Source: an uncultured delta proteobacterium
Lineage (GTDB): Bacteria; Desulfobacterota; Desulfomonilia; Desulfomonilales; Desulfomonilaceae
Reading direction: 5' to 3'
Assembly (NCBI GenBank): GCA_963789265.1
Contig: CAWBKB010000006.1
Location: 384,001 to 448,000 of the forward strand
Length of the DNA: 64,000 nucleotides
Below the pieces are notes generated by a model that worked only from the letters and a program-made list of their open reading frames with translations, was not told where the DNA came from and did not search any database. Both the position numbers and the translations under genes were made by a program. Positions 16,644-59,973 of this stretch are shown one piece after another (position 1 is the stretch's first letter; every line of letters begins with the position of its first letter).

Positions 16644-16897
16644 TAGGGTGGGCATCCTGCCCGCCAATTAATGTCGTGGGCATCCCGCCGCCCGACTGAT
16701 TTTGATGGAGTGGTCACTCATACCGGTTCGCTCACAATGAGTGAGACCCGGCAAATAGCGAACGGCACTGATCTGGCATCATGACGGAACTCAGGTCAAT
16801 GGCGCCCAACATCCATTCATAAGATCCCGGGTACCACCCCGCCATGCCCTTCATCTGGAATCGACGGGCAATCCCGCGCTTCGCGGGACCACCCTAC
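16644..16897. repeat. GTAG-type REP cluster
   Basis: GTAGGGTGGGCATCCTGCCCGCC ... CCACCCTAC, second GTGGGCATCCCGCC. Confidence 0.6.
16872..16888. repeat. 17-nt micro-palindrome TCCCGCG-CTT-CGCGGGA
   Basis: Directly read; sits inside the CCACCCTAC REP. Confidence 0.75.
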
Positions 16898-16916
16898 TGA
16901 TCTTATGTGCAAGCGA

Positions 16917-17729
16917 TCAATCGGCGAAGAACGCCGCGGTGGGACTCACGTCTATTCTTACCTCACGTACTCCGGGTACCTGCTCTGCCATCACCCTGAG
17001 TTCGTCCGCCAACTGTCCGGCCACTGTTGCGCCGGCTTGAGTATCTACATAGACCACTTGGTCCTTGGCTCTCACCCTGACACTAGGACACTCATCAATC
17101 AATCGGGCCTTGACCCTCGCGGCCGTGACCAAATCCTCCAGCACATTCTGAGACTCGGGTGTTGTTCGGAAATGCTCCAATCCGACCGCGTGGCTGATTA
17201 TATCGACTGCATCTTCGACTGTTATCTTGCGAATATGAATCACCATGTCGTAAAGATTGGGGTCCCAAGTGTCCGCACCGAAAAGCTTTAAACTCCACTG
17301 CCGTCTCTCATGGTCGTCCTTTTTCAGGACGTAAAGGGCTTCATCCTTGGAGATCTTTTCGCGTTCCATTTCCAGCCGGACTCGATCCTCGAGATCGGCC
17401 AATATGCGAACTTTGAGCACGTGGTTGACCTTCTTCAGGAAGAAGTGGCCTCCGAGGCCGTGATACACCACATTGTCCTTCCGAACATGCTCCAGGAAGG
17501 CTGCTTCAAAGAAGGCCAAGTACTTTTCTTTGCCGTAAGTGAAACGTTCCAAAACGGACGGTGCGTCGTGGAGAGCCCGCACCAGTTTTATTTCGGGGAT
17601 ATTGAAATGATCGGAAGCTTCGACGAGGACCTCGCGAGAGATGCAGTCGTACCCGAGTCTTTGTGCAACTCTCTCGGCGACATCTTTTCCTTTGCTGTAA
17701 GATCCCCTGGAAATAGTAATTATGGGCAT
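16917..17729 (-). CDS. Cytidylate kinase-like family protein with C-terminal BON-like domain
   Basis: IITISRGSYSKG, DPNLYDMVI; C-term VPGVREV. Confidence 0.85.
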   Translation of the reverse strand: MPIITISRGSYSKGKDVAERVAQRLGYDCISREVLVEASDHFNIPEIKLVRALHDAPSVLERFTYGKEKYLAFFEAAFLEHVRKDNVVYHGLGGHFFLKKVNHVLKVRILADLEDRVRLEMEREKISKDEALYVLKKDDHERRQWSLKLFGADTWDPNLYDMVIHIRKITVEDAVDIISHAVGLEHFRTTPESQNVLEDLVTAARVKARLIDECPSVRVRAKDQVVYVDTQAGATVAGQLADELRVMAEQVPGVREVRIDVSPTAAFFAD

Positions 17730-17807
17730 TGTCCCACTCCTTTCGACCGAACACTAAGTGCATCGTATAGCAAATACGGTGAGGCCAGGAACCTGGCACG
17801 GAAGAAA

Positions 17808-17892
17808 AGATTGCTTCGCTGCGCTCGCAACGACAGATAGCGTGAATGTCATTGCGAGGAGTGAAATCCCGCGTCCCGCGGGAAAGCAATCC
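17808..17892. repeat. GATTGCTTCG/GTCATTGCGAG REP pair containing micro-palindrome at 17867-17883
   Basis: GATTGCTTCGCTGCGCTCGCAACGAC...GTCATTGCGAGGAGTGAAA[TCCCGCGTCCCGCGGGA]AAGCAATC. Confidence 0.8.
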
Positions 17893-18046
17893 CACCTTGA
17901 AACTGCGCGTTCGAGTTCATGAATCGAAATACTAGTACATTTCTCCGTAAGCGAGTTCGGCATGCGCCGAACACTTTTTAGGATAATAATTTTGATCCAT
18001 CCTTACAAACAATTAATTTTTTCGCCGGTCCCGCAACTCACCGGTG

Positions 18047-19165
18047 TCAGTCCCCCTTGATCTTTCTCTCGGCTTTGCAGCTTACGCCGATTCCTTCCAG
18101 CCCCGTGTCGAAACATCCGCTACATGAGATGCACTTGGCTTTCGCGAGATCGCCACTCTTCCAGCGGTTGATCAGATCGGGCTCTCGGATTAGAGGCCGG
18201 CAAAATGCCACGTAATCTGCAATTCCATCGGCAAGAATTCTTGAAACCACAGCGGGAGACCTTATTCCACCCACAGTAACTATCGGCACGTTGACCGATT
18301 CTTTGAACCGACGCGCCAATTCCGCGAGGTAGGCCTCGTCCTCTTCCCGGTGAATATTTTGGCGAGAAGGCACCATTCCATTAACCGAGGCTCGATTGCC
18401 TCCGCTAACCTCGATGCAGTCTATTCCGTCGTCCACCAGCCTGCGGGCCACTTGGAGCGACTCGTCCGGAACTAGGCCTTCATCGACATAATCGTTGCCG
18501 CTCAGCTTGATGAAGACCGGATAATCCGAGCCGACCGCTCCTCTTACCGCTTCCATTGTCTCGCCGAGGAAACGGTAGCGCCTGCTTATGTTTCCCCCGT
18601 AACCGTCGGTTCGCCGATTTGTTGCGCCGGAGAGGAATTGATTGATACCGTACCCATGAGCGCCGTGAAGCTGTATCCCGTCGAATCCCGCCCTTTTGGC
18701 CCTGGAAGCGGCCGCTGCATAAGCTTCGATCACCTGGGCTATCTCCTGCCGCGTCATCTCCTTGGGTGTATTTCCGGTCAGAGCGTCAGGCACAGCGGAA
18801 GGGCCCCAGATTTCTCCTTCTTCCGGGAACAGTTCAGAGTTCGCCCGACTGCCGGTGTGGGCAAGCTGGGCCATCACTTTACCGCCTTGCGAATGGATTG
18901 CCACGGCCAGGCGGCTGAGCCCCTCCAACTGGTTGTCGCTGTAGTTACCAATCTGATAAAGTATGGCGATCCCATTGGGCATCACGTACTGAAACCCGGT
19001 AACAATTAGGCCCACCCCACCGGCAGCCAGCCTACCATAAAATTCTATTGCCGTATCCGTGACGTACCCTTTTCGGTCACCGACACCGGACCACGTGGCG
19101 CTTCGGACGGATCGGTTATTAAGTTCCAGGGACTTAATCATGGTCTTTTCAAAAAGTTCGGGCAT
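18047..19165 (-). CDS. NADH:flavin oxidoreductase (OYE-like family)
   Basis: NRSVRSAT, HGAHGYGINQFLS, RPLIREPDL, CISCSGC. Confidence 0.9.
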   Translation of the reverse strand: MPELFEKTMIKSLELNNRSVRSATWSGVGDRKGYVTDTAIEFYGRLAAGGVGLIVTGFQYVMPNGIAILYQIGNYSDNQLEGLSRLAVAIHSQGGKVMAQLAHTGSRANSELFPEEGEIWGPSAVPDALTGNTPKEMTRQEIAQVIEAYAAAASRAKRAGFDGIQLHGAHGYGINQFLSGATNRRTDGYGGNISRRYRFLGETMEAVRGAVGSDYPVFIKLSGNDYVDEGLVPDESLQVARRLVDDGIDCIEVSGGNRASVNGMVPSRQNIHREEDEAYLAELARRFKESVNVPIVTVGGIRSPAVVSRILADGIADYVAFCRPLIREPDLINRWKSGDLAKAKCISCSGCFDTGLEGIGVSCKAERKIKGD

Positions 19166-19299
19166 TAATCTTGTCTCCTTTCATCCGGCGTCAGAGAAGC
19201 TCCAGGGCCACAGGCGGATGTGATGTAAAGCCGAAGAAGGCCCGGTACCCTCTATTGCCTCGGCAACTCCTGTTATGAGGGGTGAAGAGCAGTTTCGGC

Positions 19300-19503
19300 T
19301 CACTCCTGATCAAAACCAAGTTCTTTGCCGATTTCTCTAAGGCTTTTGGAGGGAGTGTCCATCGATTCTCCCCGTTCTTTCCTCAATTCACGAAGATCTC
19401 CAAAGTCCTCCAATGCCTCCTGAATTTGCAGAAACTCTTCGTAAGGGAGAATTACAAACTCCTTTTTCCCTTCCTTTTCGATAACTTGTGGATGTAATCG
19501 CAT
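19300..19503 (-). CDS. Antitoxin (Phd/YefM-like)
   Basis: GKKEFVILPYEEF..IQEALED; paired with RelE toxin. Confidence 0.75.
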   Translation of the reverse strand: MRLHPQVIEKEGKKEFVILPYEEFLQIQEALEDFGDLRELRKERGESMDTPSKSLREIGKELGFDQE

Positions 19504-19511
19504 GACTGCTC

Positions 19512-19760
19512 CTATCTATATGCTTCCCTAAGATGGCGAATACGGTAAACAACGATTTTATCTCCTTTTACTTCGAAGAGGGCCCGCCATTTCCCCATCC
19601 TAAGCCGGTATTCCGGCCAATGATCCGTCAATTTCTTGATGTCGCCCTTGAGACCGCTTTCAAGCGCCAAAAGAGCATTGTACATGACGCGAGACTCATC
19701 TCTTGGCATGGCTTTCAGGTCTTTCTCAGCCTTCGGCTTCAGTTCGACAGTATATCTCAT
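19512..19760 (-). CDS. RelE/ParE toxin
   Basis: DIKKL...EYRLRMGKWRALF...IRHLREAY. Confidence 0.85.
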   Translation of the reverse strand: MRYTVELKPKAEKDLKAMPRDESRVMYNALLALESGLKGDIKKLTDHWPEYRLRMGKWRALFEVKGDKIVVYRIRHLREAYR

Positions 19761-20150
19761 TCCAATCTATTCCGTGAAATGCTGCAAGCGAGCGCGGAGA
19801 TACTAAGTCCTAAGTCTTGAGGGTCAGGCCTATTTTCTCAGCATTGATTCGTTTCTGCAATTCTCCATTAGTATCACGCTGGCTCTATCACTTTAGTGAT
19901 GATACCAAGAAAGGCGTGTCGATTACCAAGGACGTCCCACAGCTAATCTCTAGCGCATCTGGCTCCAATGTCAACTTTATAAGCCCGATCCCGGATCCAT
20001 GGGGCCAAGGCCCGATCTTGAGATCTTTCTCGCAACCAAGAAAAGATGGGGAGCAGTTGTTATGGAATATGCTATAGTTGGAACTACAGAAGGCCCGGCA
20101 AGACATTGACAAGAATAATTATGCTTGAGCATCATCACAGAGGACTTTAA

Positions 20151-20375
20151 TTGGACCAAAACAACTTTTCGATCTTTGACCTGCCTCCCTCTGAAAAACT
20201 GCAGCTAGTGGAAGACTTGTGGAATGACCTGGCAGCCACTCCAGAAGCGGTGCCGGTGCATGACTGGCAGAAAGAAGAATTGGCCAGAAGAAAGGCCAAT
20301 CTGATGAAAAACCCCGCTGCGGGGCTCACGTGGGAACAAGTGAAGAGACGGGTCCGAAGTCCTTATGGCCGCTGA
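20151..20375 (+). CDS. Putative addiction-module antitoxin; overlapping toxin start (MAAEL) truncated
   Basis: LPPSEKLQLVEDLWNDL..WQKEELARR..TWEQVK. Confidence 0.8.
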   Translation: MDQNNFSIFDLPPSEKLQLVEDLWNDLAATPEAVPVHDWQKEELARRKANLMKNPAAGLTWEQVKRRVRSPYGR

Positions 20376-20473
20376 ATTGATGGCCGCACTTCCTTTTACC
20401 CCTGTCATAAAAGGCCATCCGGCCCATTCTTCCTAAGCGTGTAAAATTCCTGCAATCGGTGCATCTGCGTCCA

Positions 20474-22129
20474 TCAATGAACCACTAGCAGAGTAAAGGG
20501 ATATACATAAGCCTGAAGAAATACCAGGCAACCCACAAGCGTAGCCAGGGCAAGGCTGTGGAAGAAAACGTACCGCAGAATGTCCCCCTCGTGGCCGTAC
20601 CACTGGGTTGCAGTACTGGCCACCACGATGCTCTGAGCGTCAATCATCTTGCCCATGACACCGCCCGCACTGTTGGCAGAACACATCAGCGTCGGGCTTA
20701 TACCTATCTGCTGGGCGGAAATCCGCTGCAAACTACCAAAAAGCACGTTGGAAGATGTGTCCGAACCTGTGAGTGCGACTCCAAGCCATCCGAGCAAAGT
20801 CCCGAAGAAAGGATAGAGGTGACCGGTCATGGCAAAAGCTATGCCCATAGTGGCATCCAGCCCGGAATATCGAGTCACGAATCCGAGAGAAAGCATGGCT
20901 GATATTGTCAAGATGGAATACTTAATCATCTTGATCGTTTCCCAGTAGATTCTCACCATGTCGCGGACGGAATAGCCCATAACAAAACCCGATATTATCG
21001 CTGCCAAGAGGATGCCTGTGCCTGTGGCCGACAACCAGTTGAGAACGTAGACTGCCTTCTCGGCCACAGGCTTTGTAACCACGGGAGGCATGCGCATCAC
21101 CATGAGGTGCAGGTCGGGGACCAGGAACTTGGGCATGGAAATCGCGTTGAGAAAATGCTTGAACGGCCCCAGACCCCACAGGAAGACGAGAACACTGAGG
21201 ATAATCCACGGCGTCCAGGCCCGAATCACTTCTCCTCTGGTGTAATCGTGACTTGCTCGCGCTTCAGCGGTCGCATCATGCCCGTTCAGCCCCCAAATCT
21301 GTTTCGGATGCCACTTCATCAAGAATATCGTCACCGCAGCCAGCGATACCAATGAAGATATGATGTCCACCAGCGAAGGGCCATGGAAATTAGAAACCAG
21401 AAATTGAGGAACTGCGAAAAAAACTCCGGCCACCAATGTAGCCGGCCATACGCCGATTATCCCGCGGAATCCCGCGTAAGCCCACACAAGCCAGAACGGG
21501 ACGAGAAGGGAGAAGAAGGGGAGGATGCGCCCTACCATCGCGCTCAAATGCATTTCGTTCAATCCGCTGACCCCTGCCAAAGTAGTGACCGGGATGCCCA
21601 AGGCTCCAAAAGCTACGGGGGCTGTGTTTGCAATCAAGGAGAGCCCGGAAGCTTCAAGCGGCCCGAAACCTAAACCGATCAAAATTGCGGCAGTAACAGC
21701 CACCGGAGTGCCAAATCCGGCGGCCCCTTCGAAGAAGGCTCCAAAGGCAAAAGCGATGAGCACTAACTGCAACCTGCTGTCCTGCGTAACAGCGGTAAGG
21801 CTGGTCTGTAGGATCTCGAACTGGCCTTTCTCCTTCGTGAGCCGATAGAGGAAAATGACGTGCAGGATGATCCAGCATATAGGCATGAGGCCGAAGCACG
21901 CCCCATAGATTGCGGTGGCTGTTGCGAGTTTTCCGGGCATGTGAAACATAGCCGTTGCCACAGCCAAAGCCGTGGCAAGACCCAGGAGAGCGGCATAGTG
22001 GGCCTTGATTCTGAGAATCGCCAGTGTCCCCAACAGGACCACTACCGGCAAAGCGGCACACAGCGTCGAGAGCGCAATATTATTCAGTGGATTGTAAACT
22101 TGTTGCCAAGGCACCTCCAAACCTCCCAT
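20474..22129 (-). CDS. lctP: L-lactate/glycolate permease
   Basis: FFEGAAGFGTPVA, ANTAPVAFGALG, GSDTSSNVLFG, GGVMGKMI. Confidence 0.95.
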   Translation of the reverse strand: MGGLEVPWQQVYNPLNNIALSTLCAALPVVVLLGTLAILRIKAHYAALLGLATALAVATAMFHMPGKLATATAIYGACFGLMPICWIILHVIFLYRLTKEKGQFEILQTSLTAVTQDSRLQLVLIAFAFGAFFEGAAGFGTPVAVTAAILIGLGFGPLEASGLSLIANTAPVAFGALGIPVTTLAGVSGLNEMHLSAMVGRILPFFSLLVPFWLVWAYAGFRGIIGVWPATLVAGVFFAVPQFLVSNFHGPSLVDIISSLVSLAAVTIFLMKWHPKQIWGLNGHDATAEARASHDYTRGEVIRAWTPWIILSVLVFLWGLGPFKHFLNAISMPKFLVPDLHLMVMRMPPVVTKPVAEKAVYVLNWLSATGTGILLAAIISGFVMGYSVRDMVRIYWETIKMIKYSILTISAMLSLGFVTRYSGLDATMGIAFAMTGHLYPFFGTLLGWLGVALTGSDTSSNVLFGSLQRISAQQIGISPTLMCSANSAGGVMGKMIDAQSIVVASTATQWYGHEGDILRYVFFHSLALATLVGCLVFLQAYVYPFTLLVVH

Positions 22130-22232
22130 CTTCAGTCAAAAATCCCCCCCTTTCCCCATGAGCGTTAAAATAGCCAGCCTCTCAGAATTTGAGAGCCCCA
22201 GCGGGGCTCAATGATAGTAGCCCGGCAATTCA

Positions 22233-22440
22233 GAAACTGTCTCAAAACTATGTTGATGCCGAGCATCGTGCCACGATGGCTGCCCGGCACTAAAGTACCG
22301 GTCTACTCTCAATCGCCCCGATGGGGCTCAAATACAAACGTCCCGGAGGGACTAGTGATAGTAGCCCGGTAATTCATTGCCGGGAATAGGGAGCATTCGT
22401 GTTACGATTTCGTTCGGTTCCAGGGTTTTGAGACACTTTC
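22233..22440. mobile_element. MITE type A (reverse orientation), cargo CCCGGCAATTCATTGCCGGG-family REPs
   Basis: TIR GAAACTGTCTCAAAA...TTTTGAGACACTTTC; duplication TTCA in loop of CCCGGCAA-TTCA-TTGCCGGG. Confidence 0.9.
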
Positions 22441-22559
22441 TTCATTGCCGGGGGACCGGTGAGCGATGATCCAGTTCTTCGTTCCCAGGGCGCCGGAGGT
22501 AAAAATGCTTCGGGCGCCCTGGGGACGAACAGGCTCTCTTGGCCGCTTGTTCCCGGCGA

Positions 22560-22576
22560 TCCCGCGTTCCGCGGGA
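22560..22576. repeat. 17-nt micro-palindrome TCCCGCG-TTC-CGCGGGA
   Basis: Replaces the right arm of a CCCGGCGA...CTATC REP. Confidence 0.8.
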
Positions 22577-22654
22577 CTATCGGGATGTCCCTCCGGGACA
22601 GCAACGCCTCAGCAATCAATCAACCTTATTTTAACGGCTATGCCCCTTTCCCCG

Positions 22655-23974
22655 TTAATGTTGAATCCCGCGTTCCAGTGAAAGATTAATAATCTCGCAT
22701 GTATGAGACACACTCCAGCTACGGCCCCACTTTTTCCGGGCGTACTGGAGTTGCATTAAGCAACCGGGGTTGGAAGTAATGACCCTTTCGGCCCCCGTTT
22801 TGTCGATCGCTGCGACCTTGGCCTCAAGGATCTTCATGGCTCGTTCACGGTGGGTAATATTGTAGATTCCGGCCGAACCGCAGCATTGTCCTTCATCAAG
22901 GATGTCTTTCAGCGTGAGGCCGGGTATCAGGCCCAGCACGTCGCGCTGCGGAGTGATGAGCCTTTGCCCGTGGCGTAGGTGACAGGGATCATGAAAACAA
23001 ACTGTCTCGGGGATTGCACCAAGTTTGATGTAGTCCTTCAGCGCAGGAGCCAGGAATTCGGATATGTCCCGAACCTTTGCGGAAAATGCCTCAGCCTTCT
23101 CGGCCATGCGGGCACGCTGGCCAAGGGTTTCGCGGTAGGCTTTCAATTCGGATCCGCACGCGGCGCAGTCCGTGACAATCGCTTCCACTCTTTTTTCTTC
23201 GAACAGGTTTACATTGTGTTCGGCCATTTCGCGGTAAATTTTTCGCTCGCCTTCAGCGATGTTGGGTGTACCGCAACACTGCTGGTTTTTCGGAACAACG
23301 ACCGTGTACCCCGCTCGAGTGAGAATGTTTATTGTGGCTCGACTCACTTCTCCGAAGATGAGGTTCATTGCGCAGCCCAAGAAAAAGCCCACTCGGCCCC
23401 TTTCCTTTCCAACCGCGGGGATTTCTTCGGGCAGAGTATGGCTTAACGGCCGCACAGGAAGAGGCGGCAGCAAGGATTCCATAAATTCCAAATCAGGTGA
23501 GATGAGGCGCAAAATGTGGGATTTCTCAATTAGCCGTTGAAGCCCCGAATACTGGTACACGCGTAGAGGCGTTAAAAGATGCGAGAGCTTTTCCTGATCA
23601 CGAATGGCATGATGGAGGACAAATCGCTTCAATAGAGGCTGCGCGGTATTCTCCTCAATCCGATGCCGCGCCTCAAGGACTAATTCGCCCACTTTGACTC
23701 CCGCGGGGCAAACGGTTTGGCAATTGCGGCAGTCCAGGCAATGGTACATGTGGCCCACAAATTCTTCCGAAGCCGACAATCGTCCGTCAATGACTGCCTT
23801 GATCATAGCCACGCGGCCTCGGGGAGACTGGGTCTCTATACCGTCGGTGCGATAGGTCGGGCAGGTAGGGAGGCAGGTTCCGCACCTCATACACTGGAGG
23901 ACATCGCCGTAATCGTGAATATCCAAAGTAGCCAAAGCCTTGGCAATCTTCTCTGAATCGACGTGCTTGCCCAT
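22655..23974 (-). CDS. glcF: Fe-S oxidoreductase, GlcF-like (2 CCG domains)
   Basis: CMRCGTCLPTCP, CLDCRNCQTVCP, QCCG, HDPCHL, CCGSAG. Confidence 0.9.
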   Translation of the reverse strand: MGKHVDSEKIAKALATLDIHDYGDVLQCMRCGTCLPTCPTYRTDGIETQSPRGRVAMIKAVIDGRLSASEEFVGHMYHCLDCRNCQTVCPAGVKVGELVLEARHRIEENTAQPLLKRFVLHHAIRDQEKLSHLLTPLRVYQYSGLQRLIEKSHILRLISPDLEFMESLLPPLPVRPLSHTLPEEIPAVGKERGRVGFFLGCAMNLIFGEVSRATINILTRAGYTVVVPKNQQCCGTPNIAEGERKIYREMAEHNVNLFEEKRVEAIVTDCAACGSELKAYRETLGQRARMAEKAEAFSAKVRDISEFLAPALKDYIKLGAIPETVCFHDPCHLRHGQRLITPQRDVLGLIPGLTLKDILDEGQCCGSAGIYNITHRERAMKILEAKVAAIDKTGAERVITSNPGCLMQLQYARKKWGRSWSVSHTCEIINLSLERGIQH

Positions 23975-23979
23975 AGAAG

Positions 23980-25368
23980 CTATTCTGTATTCTCCAGAAA
24001 TATTTTTCCCGGATTGAGACGGCCTTCAGGGTCGAAGGCCCGTTTGATCTTTCTCATAACCTCAATGGCCTTCGGGCCTACCATTTGAGGCAGATATTTG
24101 GATTTCGTGATTCCCGTGCCATGCTCGCCCGAGATGGTACCGCCGAGGCTGATGGCCTTTTTGAAAATTTCGTCATAAGCGGCTTCCACTCGATGAATTT
24201 CTTCGGTATCTCGTTCGTCGGTCAGACAAGTTGGGTGGAGATTGCCGTCACCCGCGTGCCCGAATGTCCCGATCTTTATTGAATATCTTTTGGCGGCTTC
24301 CTGGATGGCAGCCATCATCTCCGGGATAGCCGGCCGAGGCACCGTCACATCTTCGAGTATCGTGGTCGGCCTGACTCGCGCCAGAGCTGTGAGAGCATTC
24401 CGTCGAGCGGTGAACAGCTCTTCCGATTCTTTCAGGTCCTTGGCCACCCGCAATGTCCGGGCCCGGTTGGCTCGACAAGCTTCTTCAATGCCCGCGGCTT
24501 CCTCTCCAACAACCTCCGGGTGTCCGTCCGCCTCGATCAGAAGCAGTGCGGCCACATCGCGTGGCAGGCCGATCATGACGTGATCTTCCACGCAGTTAAT
24601 AGTCATCGAGTCCATCAGTTCCAGGGTAGAGGGAATGATCTTGCGTGAGATTATTGTGGAAACTGTGCGTGCAGCATCTATTATATCGTCGTACAGAGCA
24701 AGAAAGGTTTTCCTGGCCCGCGGCTTGGGAATGAGCTTTAGCGTTATCTTTGAGAAGATTCCGATTGTTCCTTCGGAACCCGTCAAGAATTTGGTGAGGT
24801 TGTACCCCGCCACGTCTTTCACGCACTTGGTTCCATAATGGACCTTGGACCCATCAATCAGCCACGTGTCAAGGGCAAGCACATAGTCGCCGGTGATCCC
24901 GTACTTCAGTCCTCGCAAACCTCCGGCATTTTCTGCCACGTTCCCGCCGATGGTACAAACCTTCATGCTTCCCGGATCGGGTGGATAGAACAGGTTTTGG
25001 GCTTCAACGGCAGCATGAAGATCCGCGGTAATCACCCCCGGTTCTACGGTCACTGAGAGGTCATTCGACTCGATCTCGATGATGCGGTTCATGGCAGTAG
25101 TGGCAATGACAATCCCGCCCTTCACCGGGACGGAACCGCCGCTCAGACCTGTACCGCTCCCCCTGGTGGTGACCGGCAGTCCTTCCCGTGCAGCGAATTC
25201 CAAGGTCAAACCGATATCTTCTTCTGTGATAACGCGGACAACCGCGTCAGGCTTGTGAGAAACAAGAGGAGCGGCGTCGTACGAGTAGCAAAGCAGCTCT
25301 GCCTCAGAGGACAGGACCTTGCTTTTGCCGAGCAGGCGTTCCAATTCGTTCACAAATGGTTTACGCAT
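23980..25368 (-). CDS. glcD: FAD-linked oxidase, GlcD-like (lactate/glycolate dehydrogenase)
   Basis: RGSGTGLSGG, PPDPGS, GSEGT, HAGDGNLHP, GEHGTG, NPGK. Confidence 0.92.
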   Translation of the reverse strand: MRKPFVNELERLLGKSKVLSSEAELLCYSYDAAPLVSHKPDAVVRVITEEDIGLTLEFAAREGLPVTTRGSGTGLSGGSVPVKGGIVIATTAMNRIIEIESNDLSVTVEPGVITADLHAAVEAQNLFYPPDPGSMKVCTIGGNVAENAGGLRGLKYGITGDYVLALDTWLIDGSKVHYGTKCVKDVAGYNLTKFLTGSEGTIGIFSKITLKLIPKPRARKTFLALYDDIIDAARTVSTIISRKIIPSTLELMDSMTINCVEDHVMIGLPRDVAALLLIEADGHPEVVGEEAAGIEEACRANRARTLRVAKDLKESEELFTARRNALTALARVRPTTILEDVTVPRPAIPEMMAAIQEAAKRYSIKIGTFGHAGDGNLHPTCLTDERDTEEIHRVEAAYDEIFKKAISLGGTISGEHGTGITKSKYLPQMVGPKAIEVMRKIKRAFDPEGRLNPGKIFLENTE

Positions 25369-25395
25369 CTTAAGGGCTGTTCGGCCGAGGCAACA

Positions 25396-25809: not shown

Positions 25810-25830
25810 GTCAATCCTCCAGAAAAGGCG

Positions 25831-25970
25831 TTTACCGCGGAGAGCGCAGAGACCGCGGAGAAATAAGTGTTCTTTATTTCTGTGGCAGGTGAGATATATG
25901 TCTGTACGACTCACCTTGTCATGTCCAAAGCATTTATCTCTCTGCGATCTCTGTGAACTCTGCGGTGAAT
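25831..25970. repeat. Inverted REP pair (ACCGCAGAG..CGCAGAG family)
   Basis: TTTACCGCGGAGAGCGCAGAGACCGCGGAG ... CTCTGCGATCTCTGTGAACTCTGCGGTGAA. Confidence 0.8.
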
Positions 25971-44593: not shown

Positions 44594-44810
44594 GGAAGGG
44601 TGGGCCATGCCCACCGCCGTTCCGAATAGGTGGCGACCATGAACTTGTATCGGTAGGACAGGCATCCTGGTGTCGTCATGCCCGCGTACGCGGGCATCCA
44701 GTAGGACCGGCCTCCGCGCCGGTTGTTCGCGAGTCGCCGGCGCGGAGGCCGGCTCTACCTTCGGATCGGCGCCCTGGGTGACGAATGACAGGCAGGATGC
44801 CTGTCCCACC
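44594..44810. repeat. Mixed REP cluster inside nif operon
   Basis: GTAGGACAGGCATCC..GACAGGCAGGATGCCTGTCCCAC; GTCATGCCCGCGTACGCGGGCATCCAG; GCCGGCGCGGAGGCCGGCTCTAC. Confidence 0.8.
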
Positions 44811-50315: not shown

Positions 50316-50332
50316 TCCCACGTCCCGCGGGA
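50316..50332. repeat. Micro-palindrome variant TCCCACG-TCC-CGCGGGA
   Basis: One mismatch to copy at 17867. Confidence 0.6.
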
Positions 50333-51132: not shown

Positions 51133-51183
51133 GGAGATCTGAGGCCTGAAAAGCGGGGCTTTCGGGGCGAGGACATCCGTCGT

Positions 51184-51489
51184 CTACCTTCGCAGGCTGA
51201 GAAGCAGCCGCTTCATGTGGCTCATGCCCGAGAATATCCCGCTGAGCCATCCACCCACGCATCCCGCGAGGAAAAGCTCAGCATTGGGGATCTGCCGAAC
51301 CCGGATATTGTAATAGAGGAACAAGTCTACAACGCCGAACGAAATCATAGCGGCCAGGATGAAGACCCGTACAAAATTCTTGTCCGTAACCCGCAAGAAG
51401 GCCCCGACCACGTAGAATACCAGCATCAGCACTCCCAGCGATAGAGCGAACCCTAGAAAACCTGCCTTTATGAGAAGACCCAGATCCAT
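51184..51489 (-). CDS. Small membrane protein
   Basis: Three hydrophobic segments; GAGGA RBS. Confidence 0.65.
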   Translation of the reverse strand: MDLGLLIKAGFLGFALSLGVLMLVFYVVGAFLRVTDKNFVRVFILAAMISFGVVDLFLYYNIRVRQIPNAELFLAGCVGGWLSGIFSGMSHMKRLLLSLRR

Positions 51490-51799
51490 TTTACCGATCC
51501 TCAGTTGAAGAAGACCTTTGATTGCAACAGTCCTTCGCAGAGAACGCAGAGACCGGGGAGAATTCTATTTTCGTGCACGTCGTTCCGATGGAACGCGGCA
51601 AGTTCCGGCCTGTTGCGATGAAGGCGATTTCGGCTTGCCTATACGCGCTGAAGACTCACATGACGCTGAATAAGCTGTCGTTCTTCTCTTTGTTCTCGAC
51701 GCATCTCGCGCATCGCTGGACGGTGAACCGAACAATGACCTTCCGGTCGTCACGCACAAAGAATCTCTGATCTTAGTTTTCATTGACGCCGCGCTATTT

Positions 51800-51857
51800 G
51801 AAACCGTCTCAAAACTATTTTGATGCCTAGAATCGTGGCACGATAGCAACCCGGCGC
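51800..51857. mobile_element. Solo end of MITE A
   Basis: GAAACCGTCTCAAAACTATTTTGATGCCTAGAATCGTGGCACGAT. Confidence 0.8.
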
Positions 51858-51884
51858 ATTTCCTCGCTTTTCCGCAAACGGCCT

Positions 51885-54800
51885 TCAGAATTCCAAAAGA
51901 TCGAGTCCCGTGCTGCTAATCGCAGAATTCAGATCCTCCAGATCGCGGTGAAGACCCAAGTCACTGAACATTGCTTTTGCTTTTTCTAAATACGCCTCCG
52001 TCTCGTGCCTGACAGGCTCCGAGGATTCACACTTGACCGACCGCGTGCGCACAGCTATTTCCGCATAGGTCCTTGCAAGCTCGGGACGTGCGCCAAGGCT
52101 TTCTCCTACTCTAATCGCCTTGTGCCACCACTTCAAAGCCCTTTTTCGATCGCCGATCAACCATTTATACACACCCATGAGTCTATAGGAGTCCGTTCGA
52201 TATAACGCCGCTTTCTGACATGTCTTGATCAGCATCTTTCCTGACTTTAAAGCACTTCTCCGCCATTTGCAGGATTCTTCTCTGTGGCCCCTATTAAGAG
52301 AGTCTTCCAGGCGCAGCAGGTAGTACCTCGAACTCACTTCGATAAAAGGGTGACAACTGTATGGGAGCGGCTTTCACTTCAGATCTGATTTGGTTGGCTT
52401 GATCCAGCGATTCTCCAGCCCCCGCCGTATCTTTCATCGAGAGATGTGTCAAGGCCTTTAGAGAATACATAGTGAATATGGCTGAACGCCAACCCTTTCT
52501 TTCGACAAGATCAATTCCACGATTCACTTCAGTGGTTGCTGCCTCCAGGTGGCGGCATTCAATGAGCAGACAAACATTGAGCAGATATTTAAAGAGGCGG
52601 CAAATATCGTTTTCATAGGTTTCGGCGATTTCACTCAGTTTTGACACCATCAATCTTGCTGCATCAAAATGGCCCTGGCAGACTTTAGGAAGTCCGTGCC
52701 AGGCATATTGGTGGCCTGCATCCCACGTTTCTCCAATTCTCAGGCCCCTGTTAACTAGACCCTCGTCATACTCGCTGATCTCGTTCCACCGCCCTGTGAG
52801 AAAAAGGTGCTGCGTGTGCAAGAGATCGTAATTAATCCATTGCTTGACATCATCAGGGGCCAGCCTGGGCTTTGCATAATCCAGGATCCTTCTGCCGACA
52901 CTCAGGGAAAGACCGGTGAAGGTAAAAAGAGCACTGGAGCCGACAAAGATCCCAAGCCCGAATTTGAATTTTGTCAGATCGAGACGGACGATTGTGTTAT
53001 AGAAGAAGAAAGATTCGATGAAAAACCGCTTGGGGTCGATGACAACGAGGGCTCCGGCTCTCTTGTAAAACAGGTTTACTGCTTCAGCCTCCTTGTGTGT
53101 CGGGAGTCTTTTGAACCAGAAAGATGGAAAGTACAGGGCCAGGAGGAAGGTAATAAAACTCCATAGGAACCTGAAGCCCCTTGAAAATGCATTCTTGGGT
53201 AACTTGCCCCAATAGTAGTTTAGAGCCTCGTCGAAATACTCTACCGCTTCAGTGTAGTATCCTCTGTTAAAGAGAGCGAGCCCGATGTTCTTTTCAAGCA
53301 CGGCCACCTTTTCGGGTTCGGCACTCTCTCCTCGCAGCATTAGATAAATGCGGAGCGCTTCCTGGTAGTAGTGGAGGGCCTCATCAGATGCAGCAGACCT
53401 TGATGCCTCTTCACCGGCCTCGATCAGGCACTCTTCGGCCTTTTCCCACGCTTCAGCTCTTGAATAGTGGTATGCGAGAAGACCAAAAAACTCCTCGAGG
53501 CGGTTCACAAACAATTGTTCGATAGCGGCTCCCACCCTGGCATGAAGAGTCTTGCGTTCGGGCTTGCCGATGTTCTCGTAAATGGCTTCATGAGCCAGGT
53601 CGTGATTGAACATGTACGCGGACTCCGATGTCCGAGTGTCCTTTAGGATCAATCCCAGCCTCTCGAGGGTCGCCAGTTGTTCCGGAAGCTCAGGAGGGGA
53701 TTGGACGACCGCGCGCAGAACGCGGTAGGGAAAACGGCGGCCAACGACTGCCGCAACCTTCACCACCTCCTTCAATTCCTCATCCAACAAATCCACCCGG
53801 GCCCTGATAATGCCCTGAATGGTCCTTGGAACCTTCATCGTCTCGATCTCGGTGGTGAGACGCCACTCGTTGGACGATGAGTCTCTGGTACAGAAGGCTT
53901 TCATCAATAAGCGACCGAATGATCTCCTCGATAAAGAATGGATTGCCTTCCGCCTTATCAATGATCTTGTCGCGCAGAGCAGAGAGGTGGCTCCCATTGT
54001 TCAGGAGATTGGCAACCAGTTTCGCACTTTGAAGCGAAGACAGAGGGGCAAGACGGATTTCGTCGTATCGATCATGATACACCACCGTCAGCATCTCGCG
54101 TAATTGAACCGCGGGGCCCTCCATCGTAGGACGGCTCACTCCAAGCATGAGAAGCGGGACGCTGTAAATCAAGGGAAGCAAGTGCTGAAGCATTAGTGCG
54201 GATGATTCGCCCATCCACTGAATGTCCTCGAACACTAGCACCAACGGCTGCATCCGAGCGATCCTTTCAAAGAAGTGGCGTGAGGATAGCAATACCTGCC
54301 GGCGCATGGCTTCAGCCTGCAGATGCTCGATGTGCTCGGCAAATTCCTCTCGCACGTCCAAAGAAATCATTGTGGCCAGGAAGGGGAGAATTTCAGTCGT
54401 TCCGTCTTCAAAAAGTGTCTCAACTCGGATTCGCAGTTTGCGCCGAACATCATCTTCGTTATCCTGTTCTGTAATTCCTGCGTCCGCCCAAATAAGTTGT
54501 CGGAACAGCCCGTAGGAAACCATTTTCTCCATAGAACTGGCGCTCGCTTCCAGCCATTGAACTTGAGACCGTGGGCTCGTGCCGATTACCTGATCGCGTA
54601 GCTCCGCGATAAGGCGTGATTTGCCTATGCCCGCTTCGCCGATGATGGAAACAAAGCGGCCTTGACCTTGTTTCAGTCCTTCTATGCGACGTCTGAGCAC
54701 CCTCAACTCTGCCTTGCGACCGACGACCCAAGAACTCATCCTCCTCACAGCTATGCGGTCCGTTTGGGAAGGTCCGGACCGGGCACGCAAAAGGCGATAA

Positions 54801-55429
54801 CTCAGAATACCATCGGCTTGACCATGCACTTGAATCTCACCGAGGTTCTGGAAAGCGAACAGATGGGAAGTCAGCCGGTAGGTTTCTTGCGATACGAGAA
54901 TTTCACCCTGCTTCGACGAATCCTTGAGCATTTTTGCGGTCTTCACAGCCTCACCCGCGAACACAAGCTCTTGATGCTCGCGGTTGCCGATCCGTACGAC
55001 CGTCACGTTCCCTGTGTCGATTCCGAAGCTCAGGTCCAACCTGAGTTTGCACTCCGCACTGACCTCCTCCAGCAACCGTACAATCTCCAATGCCGCGCGG
55101 CAGGCGCGCTCCGCATCATCGTCATGCGTGTCCGGTATCCCGAATACCGCCATAATGCTCTCACTGGTGAACTCGGCCATAAGCCCGTCGTAGTGCTCGA
55201 TAACGCGCCGAAAACGTTCGAAATATCCTTTCAGCAGAGCACCCTCGGTTTGGACGTCCACGGAGTCAACATAGACCCGGAAGTCGGGAATTGCGGCTAC
55301 TATGACGGTGGCGAGCTTGCACTCTGACGGACAAACATTCTCAGGAGCATCAATGTCATCCGACGCTCGTCCTATCTTTTCACTGATGGCCATGGAGCAT
55401 TTCCACATCCGGAACCGTGCGGGATCCAC
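51885..55429 (-). CDS. Class III cyclase-like / AAA ATPase / TPR protein split by two frameshifts (about 53887, 52327)
   Basis: AVFG.P..HDDDAERA, GEAGIGKSRL, VFEDIQW, EGNPFFIEE, TPR-like C-term. Confidence 0.88.
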
Positions 55430-55748
55430 GCGAAATCAGTTCTCGCGTAGTCGATCTCGGCCCCCAAACATGCTACAATCTTATTAAGAATTTTTTCTCG
55501 AACCGGCCCTTTCGATCTTGCGATGCTTCTGAGCAAAACGCCGGAGAGTCGTGCATCAGCATCTCACAGTCGAGCAAAGCCAAATGTTGACAAAATCTAC
55601 TCACATCGGTGCAGTTTATGCCACAAACCACGGCCTTGCAACGGATATTTCGGCTTGACCGGGACTCACGTTTACAGGTACGATAACATTAGGCAGCATA
55701 GGAGTGAGTTATGAGAGTTCGCGCCTGCCACTTGATCGGGGGAATTGA

Positions 55749-58685
55749 ATGGGGAAAACATTACCCGGTGGAGTTGCTCCAATCAGCTCCATATCGACCT
55801 ATGAGATCAGTAAGCTCGAATCATCCGTAGCTTGGCAATTCTATTCGTCTTGTCGCGGCCGATACAAACTTGCAATCCTCGGTGCTTTGTTGCTTGCGGC
55901 CGCACTTTGGGAGGTAGTGCCCGGTGGCCACATTCTGGCTTGGCTAGGCGCTGTTCTTGTGTCTCAGATTTCAAGTCAAGCTATGTGCTCGGCCTTTGGT
56001 AGGGCATCGGCGGCCGGCAGCTCCGAGACTTATTGGAAGTGGCTATTTGCGGCTGGCGTGGCGATCAGCGCCCTTGTGGCCGGCATTGCAGGAATCTACC
56101 TGTTCCCCGTCGGATCAATGCCCCACCAATTTGTTCTCGCGCTCTATCTGGCTTGTATAGGCTGTGTGGCAGTGATCACGTATTCCGCGTTCCTGCCATC
56201 CAGCATAATTGCCATTCTCCTGGTAATGCTTCCCTTATGCGGTAATTTCGCGAGTCAAAGATCACAATTCGGGTACACCATGGGCGCAGTGCTTTTGTTG
56301 TTCACTGTAGCATTGATTAGCGCCGCCGCCCACATGCATAGGGTCCTGATGGAAACCCTGAAACTGCGAATTGAAAAGGATGGGCTGATAGAATCTCTGT
56401 CGCGCGAAAAGGAGAAGATTGAAGGCCTCAACGCCGAACTCGAAGCAGAAGTGCTGGAGCGAAGACTTATTGCCGAATCTCTCAGCAGAAGCGAAGATAG
56501 ATACCGTGCCGTCGTACAGGGCCAAACTGAATTCGTTTGCAGGTGGCTTGCGGACTATGGCCTCTCATTCGCCAACGAGGCGTACCGACGCTATTTGCAC
56601 GCGGACCCCGATGACTTGTTAGGCCGTAGCTTCCTGGAGGTTGTGCATCCAGCCGACTTGGAACAGGTTCTTGGTTTCTTTGAATCGATTAGTCAAGGCA
56701 CCGGTCCGGAGATATGTGAATACCGAGTGAACATGCCTGGAAAGGAGATCCGGTGGCTTCAATGGACCTGCCGGCCGATACTTGACAAACTGGGTCAAGT
56801 GAAAGAGTACCAGGGCGTTGGGAGGGACATCACGGCTCGAAAGAAAGCGGAAGAAGCGCTGGCGGCGTCGGAGGAGAAGTATCGGTCAATTGTGGAGAAC
56901 GCCGGTGAAGGAATTGTGGTCGTCCAAGGGACCAAAGCCGGATTTGTGAATCCTAAAATACTAGCATATACCGAGTTGTCGGAAGATGTATTGAAGGCAG
57001 GTGAATTTATTGATTTCTTTCATCCTGACGACAGACAATTGTTGAAGGATGCCTGCCTAAAAGCGACCCAGGGAGAAGAGCCGCCATCAGCAGAACTCAG
57101 ATTCCTGAACAAGACCGGAGACAGATCATGGTTTCAGCTCAAGGCGGTAGGTATTTCATGGGAAGGCAAACAGGGAATACTCGGATTCATCACAGACGTC
57201 ACCTGGCGCAAGGAAGCGGAACGAGCACTGCAAAAATCTCATGAAGAGCTTGAAGTAAGAGTCCGGGAACGAACAGCCGAACTGAACGAAATGAACAAGA
57301 AGTTGCAGCTTGAGATTGCAGACAGACTCCATGCCGAGGAGTCATTACGTAACAGTGAACAACGCTTTCGGACAATATTCGAGAAAGCTCGGGACTGCAT
57401 ATTCGTTAAAGACATACAGCTTAGATACACTCACCTCAATCCGGCGATGCAAGCTATAATTGAAGCGGATGAATCGGATACTACAGGATTGACCGATAGA
57501 GATCTGTACGGGGACGACCAAGCAGTTCGCCTTATGGATGAAGACATGCGGGTCCTGGTCGGCCAAGTTGTAGAAGCGGAACATACTCTCATGCTTAAGG
57601 GGCGCGAACTTACTTTCAACTGCGTCAAGGTCCCTATGATAAATTCTTCAGGCGAGATCGTGGGGCTGTGCGGGATCGCGCGTGATGTCACCGAACGCTC
57701 GCGTACAAAGTCGCAACGACAGAGGAGTGGCTTGGACTTTGGGTCAAAGTTCATGACCAAAACTCTGAACCAAGTTCGGTTAGCCGCCAAGAGTGACAGT
57801 CTTGTCCTGTTACTCGGAGAAAGCGGCAGCGGCAAGGATTTTCTTGCAGGACATATCCATCATTTGTCTCCTCGATCCGGGGGGCCGTTTTTTGCGATAA
57901 ATATGGCTGCTGTAGCTCAGGAGCTTGCTGAATCGGAACTGTTCGGTCATGAGGCAGGCTCGTTTACAGGGGCTCGAACTCGGAAACGTGGGATGCTGGA
58001 GCTTGCCGAAGGCGGCACGCTCCTGCTGAACGAAATTGGGGAGTTATCCCTTACGCTCCAGGCAAAACTCCTGACTTTTCTAGACACGCGATCTTTCACG
58101 CGTGTCGGCGGTGTGGCAAACATAGAGGTGGACGCCCGACTCATTGCAGCCACAAACCGTGATCTCGGGAAGGAAGTGGAAGCCGGCCGCTTTCGTCACG
58201 ATCTTTATCACCGGCTCAATGTATTCTCCATACGAGTGCCGTCGCTGCGCGACCGGTTGGATGACCTTCCGTTGCTCGTTGAGACGATATTGAGCCAGTT
58301 GTGCGCCAAGTTAGGCCGGGGCGAGGTTCCTCCCATGGATGCCCGGTGCCTGCCAATGATGGTGCACTATCACTGGCCTGGTAACGTAAGAGAATTGAAA
58401 AACGTCTTGGAACGCGCCTTGATCCTCTCGGACGGCGGTAAAATAAAGCCGGAGGCCATCCGGCTCTGGGAACACCAAAACGTGAGCAAAGAACAGGACA
58501 ACTGGTTTTACGTCGTTCATTTCCCGGATCAGTATAAGAATTTGAACGATGTATGGAACAGCGTAAAGTCGGAGTTGCTGAAGGAGGCCCTCCGCCGCAC
58601 GTCCGGTGTCAAGAAGGATGCTGCGAATCTCTTGGGGATTTCTGTCGATTCGTTTAAGTACCAATCCAAAACCGTCGGCGTGTGA
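55749..58685 (+). CDS. Membrane-anchored multi-PAS sigma54-dependent activator
   Basis: N-terminal TM helices, three PAS domains, GESGSGKD, GSFTGA, WPGNVREL, HTH. Confidence 0.92.
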   Translation: MGKTLPGGVAPISSISTYEISKLESSVAWQFYSSCRGRYKLAILGALLLAAALWEVVPGGHILAWLGAVLVSQISSQAMCSAFGRASAAGSSETYWKWLFAAGVAISALVAGIAGIYLFPVGSMPHQFVLALYLACIGCVAVITYSAFLPSSIIAILLVMLPLCGNFASQRSQFGYTMGAVLLLFTVALISAAAHMHRVLMETLKLRIEKDGLIESLSREKEKIEGLNAELEAEVLERRLIAESLSRSEDRYRAVVQGQTEFVCRWLADYGLSFANEAYRRYLHADPDDLLGRSFLEVVHPADLEQVLGFFESISQGTGPEICEYRVNMPGKEIRWLQWTCRPILDKLGQVKEYQGVGRDITARKKAEEALAASEEKYRSIVENAGEGIVVVQGTKAGFVNPKILAYTELSEDVLKAGEFIDFFHPDDRQLLKDACLKATQGEEPPSAELRFLNKTGDRSWFQLKAVGISWEGKQGILGFITDVTWRKEAERALQKSHEELEVRVRERTAELNEMNKKLQLEIADRLHAEESLRNSEQRFRTIFEKARDCIFVKDIQLRYTHLNPAMQAIIEADESDTTGLTDRDLYGDDQAVRLMDEDMRVLVGQVVEAEHTLMLKGRELTFNCVKVPMINSSGEIVGLCGIARDVTERSRTKSQRQRSGLDFGSKFMTKTLNQVRLAAKSDSLVLLLGESGSGKDFLAGHIHHLSPRSGGPFFAINMAAVAQELAESELFGHEAGSFTGARTRKRGMLELAEGGTLLLNEIGELSLTLQAKLLTFLDTRSFTRVGGVANIEVDARLIAATNRDLGKEVEAGRFRHDLYHRLNVFSIRVPSLRDRLDDLPLLVETILSQLCAKLGRGEVPPMDARCLPMMVHYHWPGNVRELKNVLERALILSDGGKIKPEAIRLWEHQNVSKEQDNWFYVVHFPDQYKNLNDVWNSVKSELLKEALRRTSGVKKDAANLLGISVDSFKYQSKTVGV

Positions 58686-58911
58686 TTGCCGCACCGGTCG
58701 ACTTGACCGATCCATCGGTGAATCCCACCTGCGAAATAAGATAGCGGATTTACATCATTTGCCAGGAGTGGTTATACTTCCGTAGGTGAATTTCACACGT
58801 TGAGCCGGGTCTACCTTCTAGTCGGTAAAAAGTCCTTTCAACAGCCTGATACTCTCTCATCTCCCTGATTTAACTTGAATTGCACGTGAACACCACATCA
58901 GCCGGTCCCAT

Positions 58912-58928
58912 TTGGTACGTAAAGTGCA
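58912..58928 (+). promoter_or_regulatory. Possible sigma54 promoter
   Basis: TTGGTAC-GTAAA-GTGCA (GG-N10-GC); GGTGAAT motifs at about 58718 and 58785 upstream. Confidence 0.5.
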
Positions 58929-59069
58929 GAGTAGGCACCACCAACCTACCTTGCATGGGGGAGCTCACGGCCAATAATCGACCTGGGCTCCCAATTTCAG
59001 AATCGCCATGAGAGAAAAGAATCAAACCGGGAGGGGAGAGTGTCATGTGCAACAGATTATACGTGTTTA

Positions 59070-59232
59070 TAGCCAATGCCAAAAGTAATGACCTGTTCAC
59101 CACCCGTCGCCCCGGCGAAGGCCGGGGTCCAGTCCCGCGAGGAACGCGGGATTGAAAAGACTGGATTCCGGCCTTCGCCGGAATGACGGTGTCAGGCTAT
59201 CTCCAATCGGACAGAACTTTTGGCAATGGGTG
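59070..59232. mobile_element. MITE type B (TA target, IS630-like) carrying GTC..CCGGCGAAGGCCGG REP pair and micro-palindrome (59133-59151)
   Basis: TA|TAGCCAATGCCAAAAGT...ACTTTTGGCAATGGGTG|TA. Confidence 0.8.
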
Positions 59233-59723
59233 TAGTGGAACTATCCTTCTTTTGCTACTGTCGTCTGCGGGATTTGCACAGGAGTTGGGCTGGCGATCAT
59301 GCCATGCTCAAGCCGCGGCGCGGCAAACGTGGTAAAATCACAGGGCAGGCTGGCTGTGGCAAAGGTCCTGTACGATGCCGCTCAAGCGATTTACGAGCGC
59401 AATGGAGGATTGGACCGGGAACTCACTTCCATGTCTCTTGCAAAAGCAAGAATTTGGCCGGTGCTCCCCGAAGATTAGCCATCATCTCATCCGTGAAACC
59501 AAAGTCAGATATTGATAGCCTAAGAGCCCGGGTGACATGATGGTACGGAGAAAGTCCCACTTGGCATGACTGCGCCGACAATTGGGGTTGAGCGGCAGGC
59601 TCCCAGCATCTCCTGTAAATCCCGGACGTGTCCAGATCTGTGCACTTTCACAATCCCCATGCGCCCTCTCTAATGAAGGGGAAGAGGGGATTTTTATTAC
59701 TTGTTTGAAAGCGCATAGGTCTA

Positions 59724-59973
59724 TAGGCTTTGCCAAAAGTTTTGACCGATTTGCCCCACGTCCCGCGGGGTCACCCCGGACTCCGATCCGAGGTCTGTAG
59801 GGGCAGTCCCGCTCCTCGCGGGATTGTGTCTGCCCTCTTCCGGGCACCCACCAGGGGTGCCCCTACAGTGGATTCCCGCGTACGCGAGAATGACGGCTAA
59901 ACGTCCACAGCGAAGTATGTTCAGCATTCTTGGCATCGGGCGGCCAAACGGACTTTACTTTTGGCGGACGCTA
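59724..59973. mobile_element. MITE type B, second copy, with nested REP families and micro-palindromes (59754, 59807)
   Basis: TA|TAGGCTTTGCCAAAAGT...ACTTTTGGCGGACGCTA|TA. Confidence 0.8.

Follow-up and report, generated by a model that had tools for sequence, protein, structure and literature searches.

Among the short palindromic repeats of bacteria, those closest to the element described here are the tagged NTS and Ssn-related motif (SRM) repeats with their Ssn genes, the NIME mosaics of Neisseria, the repetitive extragenic palindromic (REP) sequences with their REP-associated tyrosine transposases (RAYTs), and the REP families with nested loops, all of which are already described. The Ssn nuclease cleaves a few bases 5' of the tag; its cutting and binding depend most on the tag and on the base that follows the palindrome, and truncated NTS substrates are bound by it and not cut (PMC11893778). 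About half of the dRS3 palindromes of Neisseria are without NTS flanks (PMC11893778), and NIME arrays were stated as not seen outside Neisseria (PMC1797815). The RAYT of E. coli cleaves at C|T under the guidance of the REP head, and it both cleaves and transfers strands in vitro (PMC3479197). In the REP families GTAG-3 and GTAG-14, short-loop and nested-hairpin-loop variants coexist (PMC3733652). Here we describe a micro-hairpin of 17-19 nt in a 64-kb stretch of DNA from an uncultured delta proteobacterium of the Desulfomonilaceae (the window, which is the whole stretch analysed: C6:384001-448000 of a 6.06-Mb, 52% G+C assembly in 9 contigs), where it sits inside unrelated repeats. With moderate confidence we read it as a rarely grafted, conserved apical module that hitch-hikes with its host repeats, and not as an autonomous transposon. 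It is among the smallest repeat modules known to move between hosts.

The micro-hairpin consists of a 7-nt arm (16872-16878 in the first window copy), a loop of 3 or 5 nt and the complement of the arm (16882-16888). Four exact copies lie in the window, against none in 100 dinucleotide shuffles. Those at 16872-16888, 17867-17883 and 22560-22576 are on the plus strand and have a 3-nt loop, while the copy at 59133-59151, on the minus strand, is the 19-nt form with a 5-nt loop that is purine-rich when read on the plus strand. Two further plus-strand copies, 50316-50332 and 59807-59823, have one arm mismatch each, and the plus-strand copy at 59754-59770 is degenerate, with its outer pair altered and one mismatch. 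The micro-palindrome proposed by the first-pass annotation at these seven sites is thus real, and its further claim that unrelated REPs are interrupted also holds, since the window copies lie in different host repeats and forms with and without the unit coexist. At 16872 the unit, with a pyrimidine loop, replaces the tip of a GTAG-type REP (host approximately 16861-16899); at 17867 it forms the apex of a TGTC-tagged SRM-like repeat (approximately 17848-17895); at 50316 it lies in a further host family (family 27/4 and 5/4); and at 59807 it stands directly 3' of the head and first bases of a GTAG-type REP. The host of the 59133 copy is a long hairpin (approximately 59104-59188) made of two tail-to-tail CGTC-tagged repeats, and the surrounding segment 59075-59200 folds with -42.3 kcal/mol (z -7.75), with the micro-hairpin at its apex. 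The copy at 22560 lies in a remnant of an Acido-Lenti-1-type REP, of which an intact form without the micro-hairpin is found on the plus strand at 9994-10039; this host repeat is the only match in an Rfam scan of the window (RF01687, Acido-Lenti-1). The comparison of these two sites made in the first-pass annotation is correct, except that 22560 is not a typical grafted form: an adjoining deletion has removed about 8 more bases than are missing from the usual grafted form of its family.

Genome-wide we counted 202 copies with loops of 3-7 nt, a number far above background, as 105 letter permutations of the arm gave a median of 0 and a mean of 3.1 copies. Widening the loop to 2-8 nt raises the count to 217. 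When only loops of 3 or 5 nt were allowed, exact copies numbered 197, those with a single mismatch 194 and those with two mismatches 262, and the reversed-arm control gave 0, 2 and 41, respectively. By these counts the family has about 600 members, including a tail of about 400 degenerate copies that are decaying. The loops are almost exclusively pyrimidine triplets (or their purine complement), or a 5-nt version with one extra dinucleotide. Among the two-mismatch copies, 46 of 262 carry compensatory changes in one pair, against a chance expectation of about 7 by hand estimate, and this excess indicates that the hairpin structure is maintained. The intergenic position claimed for the window copies extends to most copies in the genome, with 171 of 217 copies outside open reading frames on a crude map of these. 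For the flanking bases, usually an A on the 5' side or a T on the 3' side in the first-pass annotation, the genome-wide pattern is a purine before the unit in 188 of 206 oriented copies and a pyrimidine after it in 168 of 206. The first-pass annotation had further supposed that a motif forming a regular part of each REP consensus would speak against its proposal; the count lies far over background, yet within each host the motif belongs regularly to a subfamily consensus. At the same host positions we also observed collapsed micro-hairpins that have lost the loop and form a 10-nt perfect palindrome, as expected from slippage across a hairpin.

The clearest evidence on how the unit came to its present sites is given by paralogous repeats with and without it. 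Flank clustering places it at a fixed site in many longer repeat families, with a loop specific to each family, and intact and grafted forms coexist in approximately 15-27 host repeat families of this genome. Family 14/15 has 28 intact and 11 grafted sites, family 7/6 has 28 and 13, family 1/0 has 11 and 18, and family 11/2 has 12 and 7. By short BLAST, 72 of the 217 copies have one or more paralogous sites that share the flanks and are free of the unit, and both forms occur together in 27 linked groups. In nearly all groups the 17-19-nt unit stands in place of 5-8 host nucleotides, and the 3-5 host bases retained beside it match each host's own stem. Comparison of paralogous intact and grafted sites, with all copies searched, revealed no clean insertion and no target duplication; the first-pass annotation had seen no duplication either, and what is found in its place is the loss of those 5-8 host bases. 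The hosts are diverse and comprise GTAG-type REPs, tail-to-tail CGTC dimers, TGTC-tagged repeats and, in another genus, a 280-bp element described below.

In the GTAG-type REPs the exchange has a strict polarity. Read on the strand of the head, the unit takes the place of the head-proximal arm, in some hosts entirely and in others only in its distal part, in which case most of the loop is lost as well; the far arm is retained. This holds in all seven readable GTAG-type host families of this genome, including those of window copies 16872 and 59807, and in one of genome G015. Of 91 copies with a head no more than 16 nt away, 72 have a purine-rich loop on the head strand, a count that is inflated by amplification of the families. 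Any GTAG head near the unit is part of the host, and its distance from the unit, 0-5 nt, varies from host to host. The unit's own flanks consist only of the purine at -1 and the pyrimidine at +1, and it has no GTAG-like tetranucleotide of its own. From the precise ends of the unit and its polarity towards the head side, the event seems to have taken place on DNA that was single-stranded and folded.

Within host families, both loop and orientation are near-constant (33 vs 3), and inversion of the loop, which would be a signature of template switching, is rare (3 of 36). As loop and orientation are fixed within each family, most copies reflect amplification of the host and not separate jumps. 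Trees of the host flanks show 8 changes in family 14/15 and 7 in family 7/6, of which the starred branches force only 1-2.

We compared orthologous sites at three window loci with the nearest relative, G001, whose genes are 87-92% identical to those of this genome. At the orthologue of window 16872 the left flanks are identical and G001 has the host hairpin, with 6 nt where the 17-nt unit stands here. The whole repeat cluster at 17787-17966 is absent from the orthologous spacer of G001, and the 512-bp cluster at 22132-22644 corresponds to a spacer of 19 bp. The clusters that hold the 17867 and 22560 copies are therefore missing altogether from G001, and whole composite repeats also come and go.

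Profiles taken over 31 genomes, including 12 from a second family of the class, place the micro-hairpin in one bacterial family, whose members are related to sulfate reducers. It is abundant in all six other genomes of the genus (54-133 copies). Among 12 further genera of the family, eight have it, with up to 140 copies, and it was not found in the 12 genomes of the second family. An exact 25-mer spanning one grafted form was found at 28 loci in a search of one genome per prokaryote species, and all 28 are in metagenome-assembled genomes titled Desulfomonilaceae, uncultured delta proteobacterium or Thermodesulfobacteriota. Grafted forms of this genome are found again in other species, together with compensatory stem differences that belong to the host. 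From four other genera we fetched 52 copies, which are the top-scoring covariance-model matches and not a random sample; both flanks are common to this genome in only three of them, and the remainder lie in long palindromes, in tail-to-tail dimers of other tagged repeats or beside other GTAG heads. The 14 stem bases are unchanged between these genera while the host contexts differ, which indicates that the micro-hairpin has moved between hosts.

Genome G015, of genus g10, provides a further example. It contains about 20 copies of a 280-bp element with a REP at one end and an inverted REP at the other. Six of the eight fetched copies have the intact REP, and in the other two the unit has taken the place of the 7-nt head-proximal arm. 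In two short derivatives nothing but the two terminal arms remains around the unit, which gives a head-hairpin-head palindrome. In this genome the unit stands directly 3' of the head, where the REP hairpin would sit. The unit is more conserved than any of its hosts, and it has entered new hosts repeatedly over the history of the family.

A possible source of the stem is found beside a nuclease gene. The genome has six GIY-YIG matches, of which five are small genes in two classes, each flanked by its own family of tagged hairpins. One of them, P0003 (C7:415058-415348, 97 aa), matches PF01541 only (E 6.6e-17) and is a putative Ssn-type gene by this domain and its size; a sequence search of the PDB with P0003 gave only a weak UPF0213 match (E 0.0067). 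Eight CGTC-tagged copies lie within 450 nt of it (C7:414900-415900), and their 9-bp stem contains the micro-hairpin arm. The consensus of 20 tagged copies fits, at every position, the 28-nt Neisseria NTS definition (PMC11893778). This small GIY-YIG gene is the only nuclease gene flanked by the micro-hairpin stem, and the hairpin there has the tagged NTS-like form. Inverted tagged hairpins with this stem core also enclose the orthologues of P0003 in G005 and G018, and the TGTC-tagged family that is host to window copy 17867 flanks the class-2 small GIY-YIG genes. The inner 7 bp of the NTS-type stem are identical to the micro-hairpin, which is without the tag and the two outer A-T pairs and has a loop one or three bases longer.

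The tagged and tagless forms are discrete populations. The tag is present in 11 of 15 copies with a 2-nt loop and in one of 197 with loops of 3 or 5 nt, and comparison of the genomic copies by loop and tag gave no intermediates. In a sister stem type, 36 of 45 copies carry the tag. In the window this type is represented by the CGTC-tagged NTS/SRM-type repeat on the plus strand at 44674-44701 (tag, 9-bp stem, 2-nt loop and tail), and a relaxed match to the micro-hairpin at 44681 was rejected as part of that repeat.

The enzymes most likely to have multiplied the hosts are the RAYTs. The genome has seven Y1_Tnp matches, of which four are RAYT-like genes flanked by their own GTAG-type REPs, and P0001, the R1-type RAYT, passes the NCBI REP-associated tyrosine transposase model (81 bits, cut-off 80). 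Among 13 genomes of the family that are at least 90% complete, an R1-type RAYT was found in seven, which carry 16-200 micro-hairpins, and was not found in six, which carry 0-6.

The replacement anatomy, the coexisting forms, the orthologous-site difference, the clonal loops, the genus-specific hosts and the NTS-like identity of the stem are all directly supported, and the history that we favour would join them as follows. The 7-bp stem would have originated as the inner stem of the lineage's CGTC-tagged NTS/SRM repeats, the targets of Ssn-type GIY-YIG single-strand nucleases, and would have become a separate, tagless population with loops of 3 or 5 nt. On rare occasions, perhaps tens of times in the history of the bacterial family, the 17-19-nt unit would have been grafted onto another palindromic repeat, replacing 5-8 nt at or beside the host loop and, in GTAG-type REPs, always in the arm beside the GTAG head. 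The grafted form would then have multiplied passively with its host by means of the host's amplifier, most likely the RAYTs of the lineage. Because the head and a strong hairpin are retained, grafted forms are plausibly still RAYT substrates. We infer that the graft is made while hairpin DNA is single-stranded, through a template switch in replication or a strand exchange mediated by a nuclease, and that the subsequent amplification is driven by RAYTs. For the grafting step itself, template switching during replication, strand transfer by a RAYT and an after-effect of Ssn cutting are all conceivable.

Several observations weigh against this history. By short BLAST the flanks of 136 of the 217 copies were found once only, and some of these may be independent insertions, which, if true, would raise the share of true mobility. 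The flank trees agree with one origin per host family as well as with several, and repeated conversion within a family is at most possible. Precise ends of the unit in very different hosts are easier to explain by an enzyme than by template switching. For the part given to RAYTs, only intact REPs stand beside the RAYT genes, no RAYT match was obtained in four less complete genomes with 5-70 copies, and in some families the junctions depart from the C|T rule of the E. coli enzyme. The correlation with RAYT presence is only suggestive, as it is confounded: the hosts are RAYT-type REPs, and related genomes are not independent.

The alternative that survives best, although we consider it improbable, is a true minimal mobile element, in which the bare 17-19-nt hairpin is moved as single-stranded DNA into hairpin tips by a RAYT (HUH/Y1) and amplification of the hosts is secondary. 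The precise and identical boundaries of the unit in at least 15 unrelated hosts would be expected of such an element, as would its strict polarity to the head in eight of eight GTAG-type host families, the excess of purine-rich loops on the GTAG strand and a copy number that follows the presence of an R1-type RAYT. Its position directly after the head in G015, at the place of the REP hairpin, and the strand transfer by the E. coli RAYT in vitro (PMC3479197) agree with this as well. Against it, the first-pass annotation had looked to a Y1/HUH gene flanked by the hairpin, and there is none: no micro-hairpin lies within 2.5 kb of any of the seven Y1 matches, save one copy 2489 nt from one gene, and the REPs beside each RAYT gene are other hairpins. 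The loops are clonal within hosts, and 5-8 nt of the target are lost. To our knowledge, target loss of that kind is not known for insertion of the IS200/IS605 type. The junction bases are also inconsistent with the C|T rule, which fits some loops, pyrimidine-rich in any case, and fails in other hosts. What stands of the mobile hairpin originally inferred, with spread by HUH-type cleavage or template switching, is movement between hosts, as seen at the orthologous site and between genera; what does not stand is simple insertion, since the unit replaces 5-8 nt and is mostly copied by amplification of its hosts.

A link with Ssn itself, for which we see slightly less probability, would make the micro-hairpin a by-product or a tool of the nuclease, either a tagless NTS derivative left by repair of Ssn-cut single-stranded DNA or a marker or protector of repeat tips that is bound and not cut. 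Such an origin would account for the identity of the 7-bp arm to the inner stem of the tagged repeats and the fit of their 20-copy consensus to the NTS definition. It would likewise accord with the array of eight tagged copies around P0003, with its similarly boxed orthologues in G005 and G018, with the 10 of 217 micro-hairpins that lie in the 8 kb beside the P0003 gene, and with the binding without cutting of truncated NTS (PMC11893778). The distribution across genomes does not follow. In the same 31 genomes, with at most the best 150 candidates scored per genome for the tagged-repeat and Ssn profiles, an Ssn homologue and tagged repeats fail as predictors of the micro-hairpin: G006 has 78 micro-hairpins and no Ssn match, G010 has 37 copies and one tagged-repeat match, and G009 and G024 have 63 and 106 tagged-repeat matches, respectively, and no micro-hairpins. 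The lack of tagged-tagless intermediates also speaks against this origin, as does the absence of the tag and two outer pairs, given that the tag and the base after the palindrome matter most to the enzyme in the account of PMC11893778.

It is doubtful that the micro-hairpin is no more than an established component, passed on vertically, of a few ancient composite repeats, with host diversity produced by divergence of the flanks and recombination. Family-specific loops, the same grafted forms in several species and flank trees compatible with one origin per family would all agree with vertical descent. The hosts are, however, unrelated in sequence and architecture, each has an intact counterpart, the 3-5 retained bases match each host's own stem and an orthologous site differs between close relatives. 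Least of all do we expect a selected cis-element (a terminator or regulator binding site) arising convergently, which the conservation of the stem across genera and the excess of compensatory changes would favour, but which is opposed by the absence of a T-run 3' of the stem in the flanks of the genomic copies, by unbiased orientation (59/55/47/45 with respect to GC skew, 49 vs 44 with respect to transcription), by near-equal numbers between divergent (35) and convergent (40) genes, and by the consideration that an identical 17-nt sequence cannot recur by point mutation.

The micro-hairpin is also set apart from several known classes of repeat. It is not an intrinsic terminator, having no 3' T-run and no orientation with transcription. 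Nor does it resemble an IS200/IS605-type or other insertion sequence (IS) or a miniature inverted-repeat transposable element, as neighbouring copies show no preferred IS-sized spacing genome-wide, there is no duplication and 5-8 nt are lost. Copies as the bounds of an IS-sized unit were also rejected, since the gene enclosed by the 16872/17867 pair keeps its synteny in G001 in the absence of the repeats. A GTAG-type REP with its RAYT (REPtron) would have its own head and a RAYT gene flanked by the unit, and neither is found; by oriented tag and tail it is not an NTS/SRM repeat, as the tag occurs in that single copy of the 197 with loops of 3 or 5 nt.

Other features of the window and genome are worth recording. 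Acido-Lenti-1, listed in Rfam as an 'sRNA' family, behaves here as a high-copy REP: RF01687 corresponds to a GTAG-type REP read on the opposite strand, with 43 matches in this genome, 78 in G001, 53 in G018 and 45 in G012, often as inverted pairs about 55 nt apart. The 512-bp spacer at window 22132-22644 contains at least two composite repeats of about 200 bp, with 10-70 copies each in this genome and dozens in G001. A truncated IS200-like Y1 transposase fragment lies at 7845-8192, where a 115-aa open frame matches positions 47-121 only of PF01797. Outside the window, two frames of 372-377 aa (C4:127739-128857 and C1:91569-92702) combine a Y1 transposase-like domain with a DnaA C-terminal helix-turn-helix. 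They are near-identical, with one residue different and about 25 nt after the stop also alike, which suggests a recently duplicated or mobile gene.

If the unit were moved as such, an outcome to which we give only a small chance, the 17-19-nt hairpin would be the smallest transposable unit so far seen in bacteria, a cassette swapped into the head-proximal arms of single-stranded hairpins by a RAYT or by an Ssn nuclease that acts on a tagless NTS core. Cassette exchange of this kind would convert the hairpin of one REP family into that of another and so create new REP families. The case bears on the way in which REP-like repeats branch into numerous families and on the means by which the CGTC-tagged (NTS/SRM) class is mobilised. 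The lineage offers a natural experiment, in that one invariant 14-base stem occurs both in a nuclease-associated tagged repeat and as a tagless module in at least 15 other repeat families, with matched 'before' and 'after' forms in one genome and a swap polarity that is strict relative to the RAYT recognition head. It makes testable whether a RAYT accepts a foreign hairpin behind its head, whether Ssn binds tagless cores and whether tips are exchanged enzymatically or by replication error. Even if its origin is ordinary, the micro-hairpin is a clear example of the modular evolution of bacterial repeats.

Our literature searches found no earlier account of a single, invariant hairpin without a tag that, throughout a bacterial family, takes the place of the head-proximal arm or the tip in many unrelated repeat families; they gave no paper joining GIY-YIG with repetitive extragenic palindromic, and none of relevance for Desulfomonile and REP. 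The nearest precedent for a mobile unit of such size is the small dispersed repeats (SDR) of the Nostocaceae, which Elhai and colleagues are said to have described in 2008 (Genome Res 18:1484) as hairpin-forming sequences of 21-27 nt, reportedly mobile and inserted in other short repeats. The SDR, to which PMC5861425 and PMC3116915 refer, belong to a different phylum, the cyanobacteria, and have a different sequence.

Compared with the systems introduced at the outset, the micro-hairpin shares the inner 7 bp of its stem core with the NTS and Ssn-related motifs (PMC11893778, PMC3733652), and NTS-fitting tagged copies surround a 97-aa single-domain GIY-YIG gene in this genome. It differs from NTS/SRM repeats in having no tag, no outer A-T pairs and no tail, in its loop of 3 or 5 nt as against 2 or 4 nt, in being nested within other repeats and in a distribution that does not follow the Ssn gene. 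Like the NIMEs, in which dRS3 palindromes flank RS repeats (PMC1797815), it is a small conserved palindrome found among unrelated intergenic repeat families; in NIMEs the palindromes bracket the repeats, whereas the micro-hairpin replaces the apex or the head-proximal arm. With the REP/REPIN and RAYT systems (PMC3116915, PMC3479197) it is connected through its hosts, which include GTAG-type REPs with cognate RAYT genes. In contrast to the alternative loops known within REP families, a single inner hairpin is here common to many unrelated families and superfamilies and replaces part of an arm, and in contrast to the REP families themselves it remains identical across genera while its hosts change.

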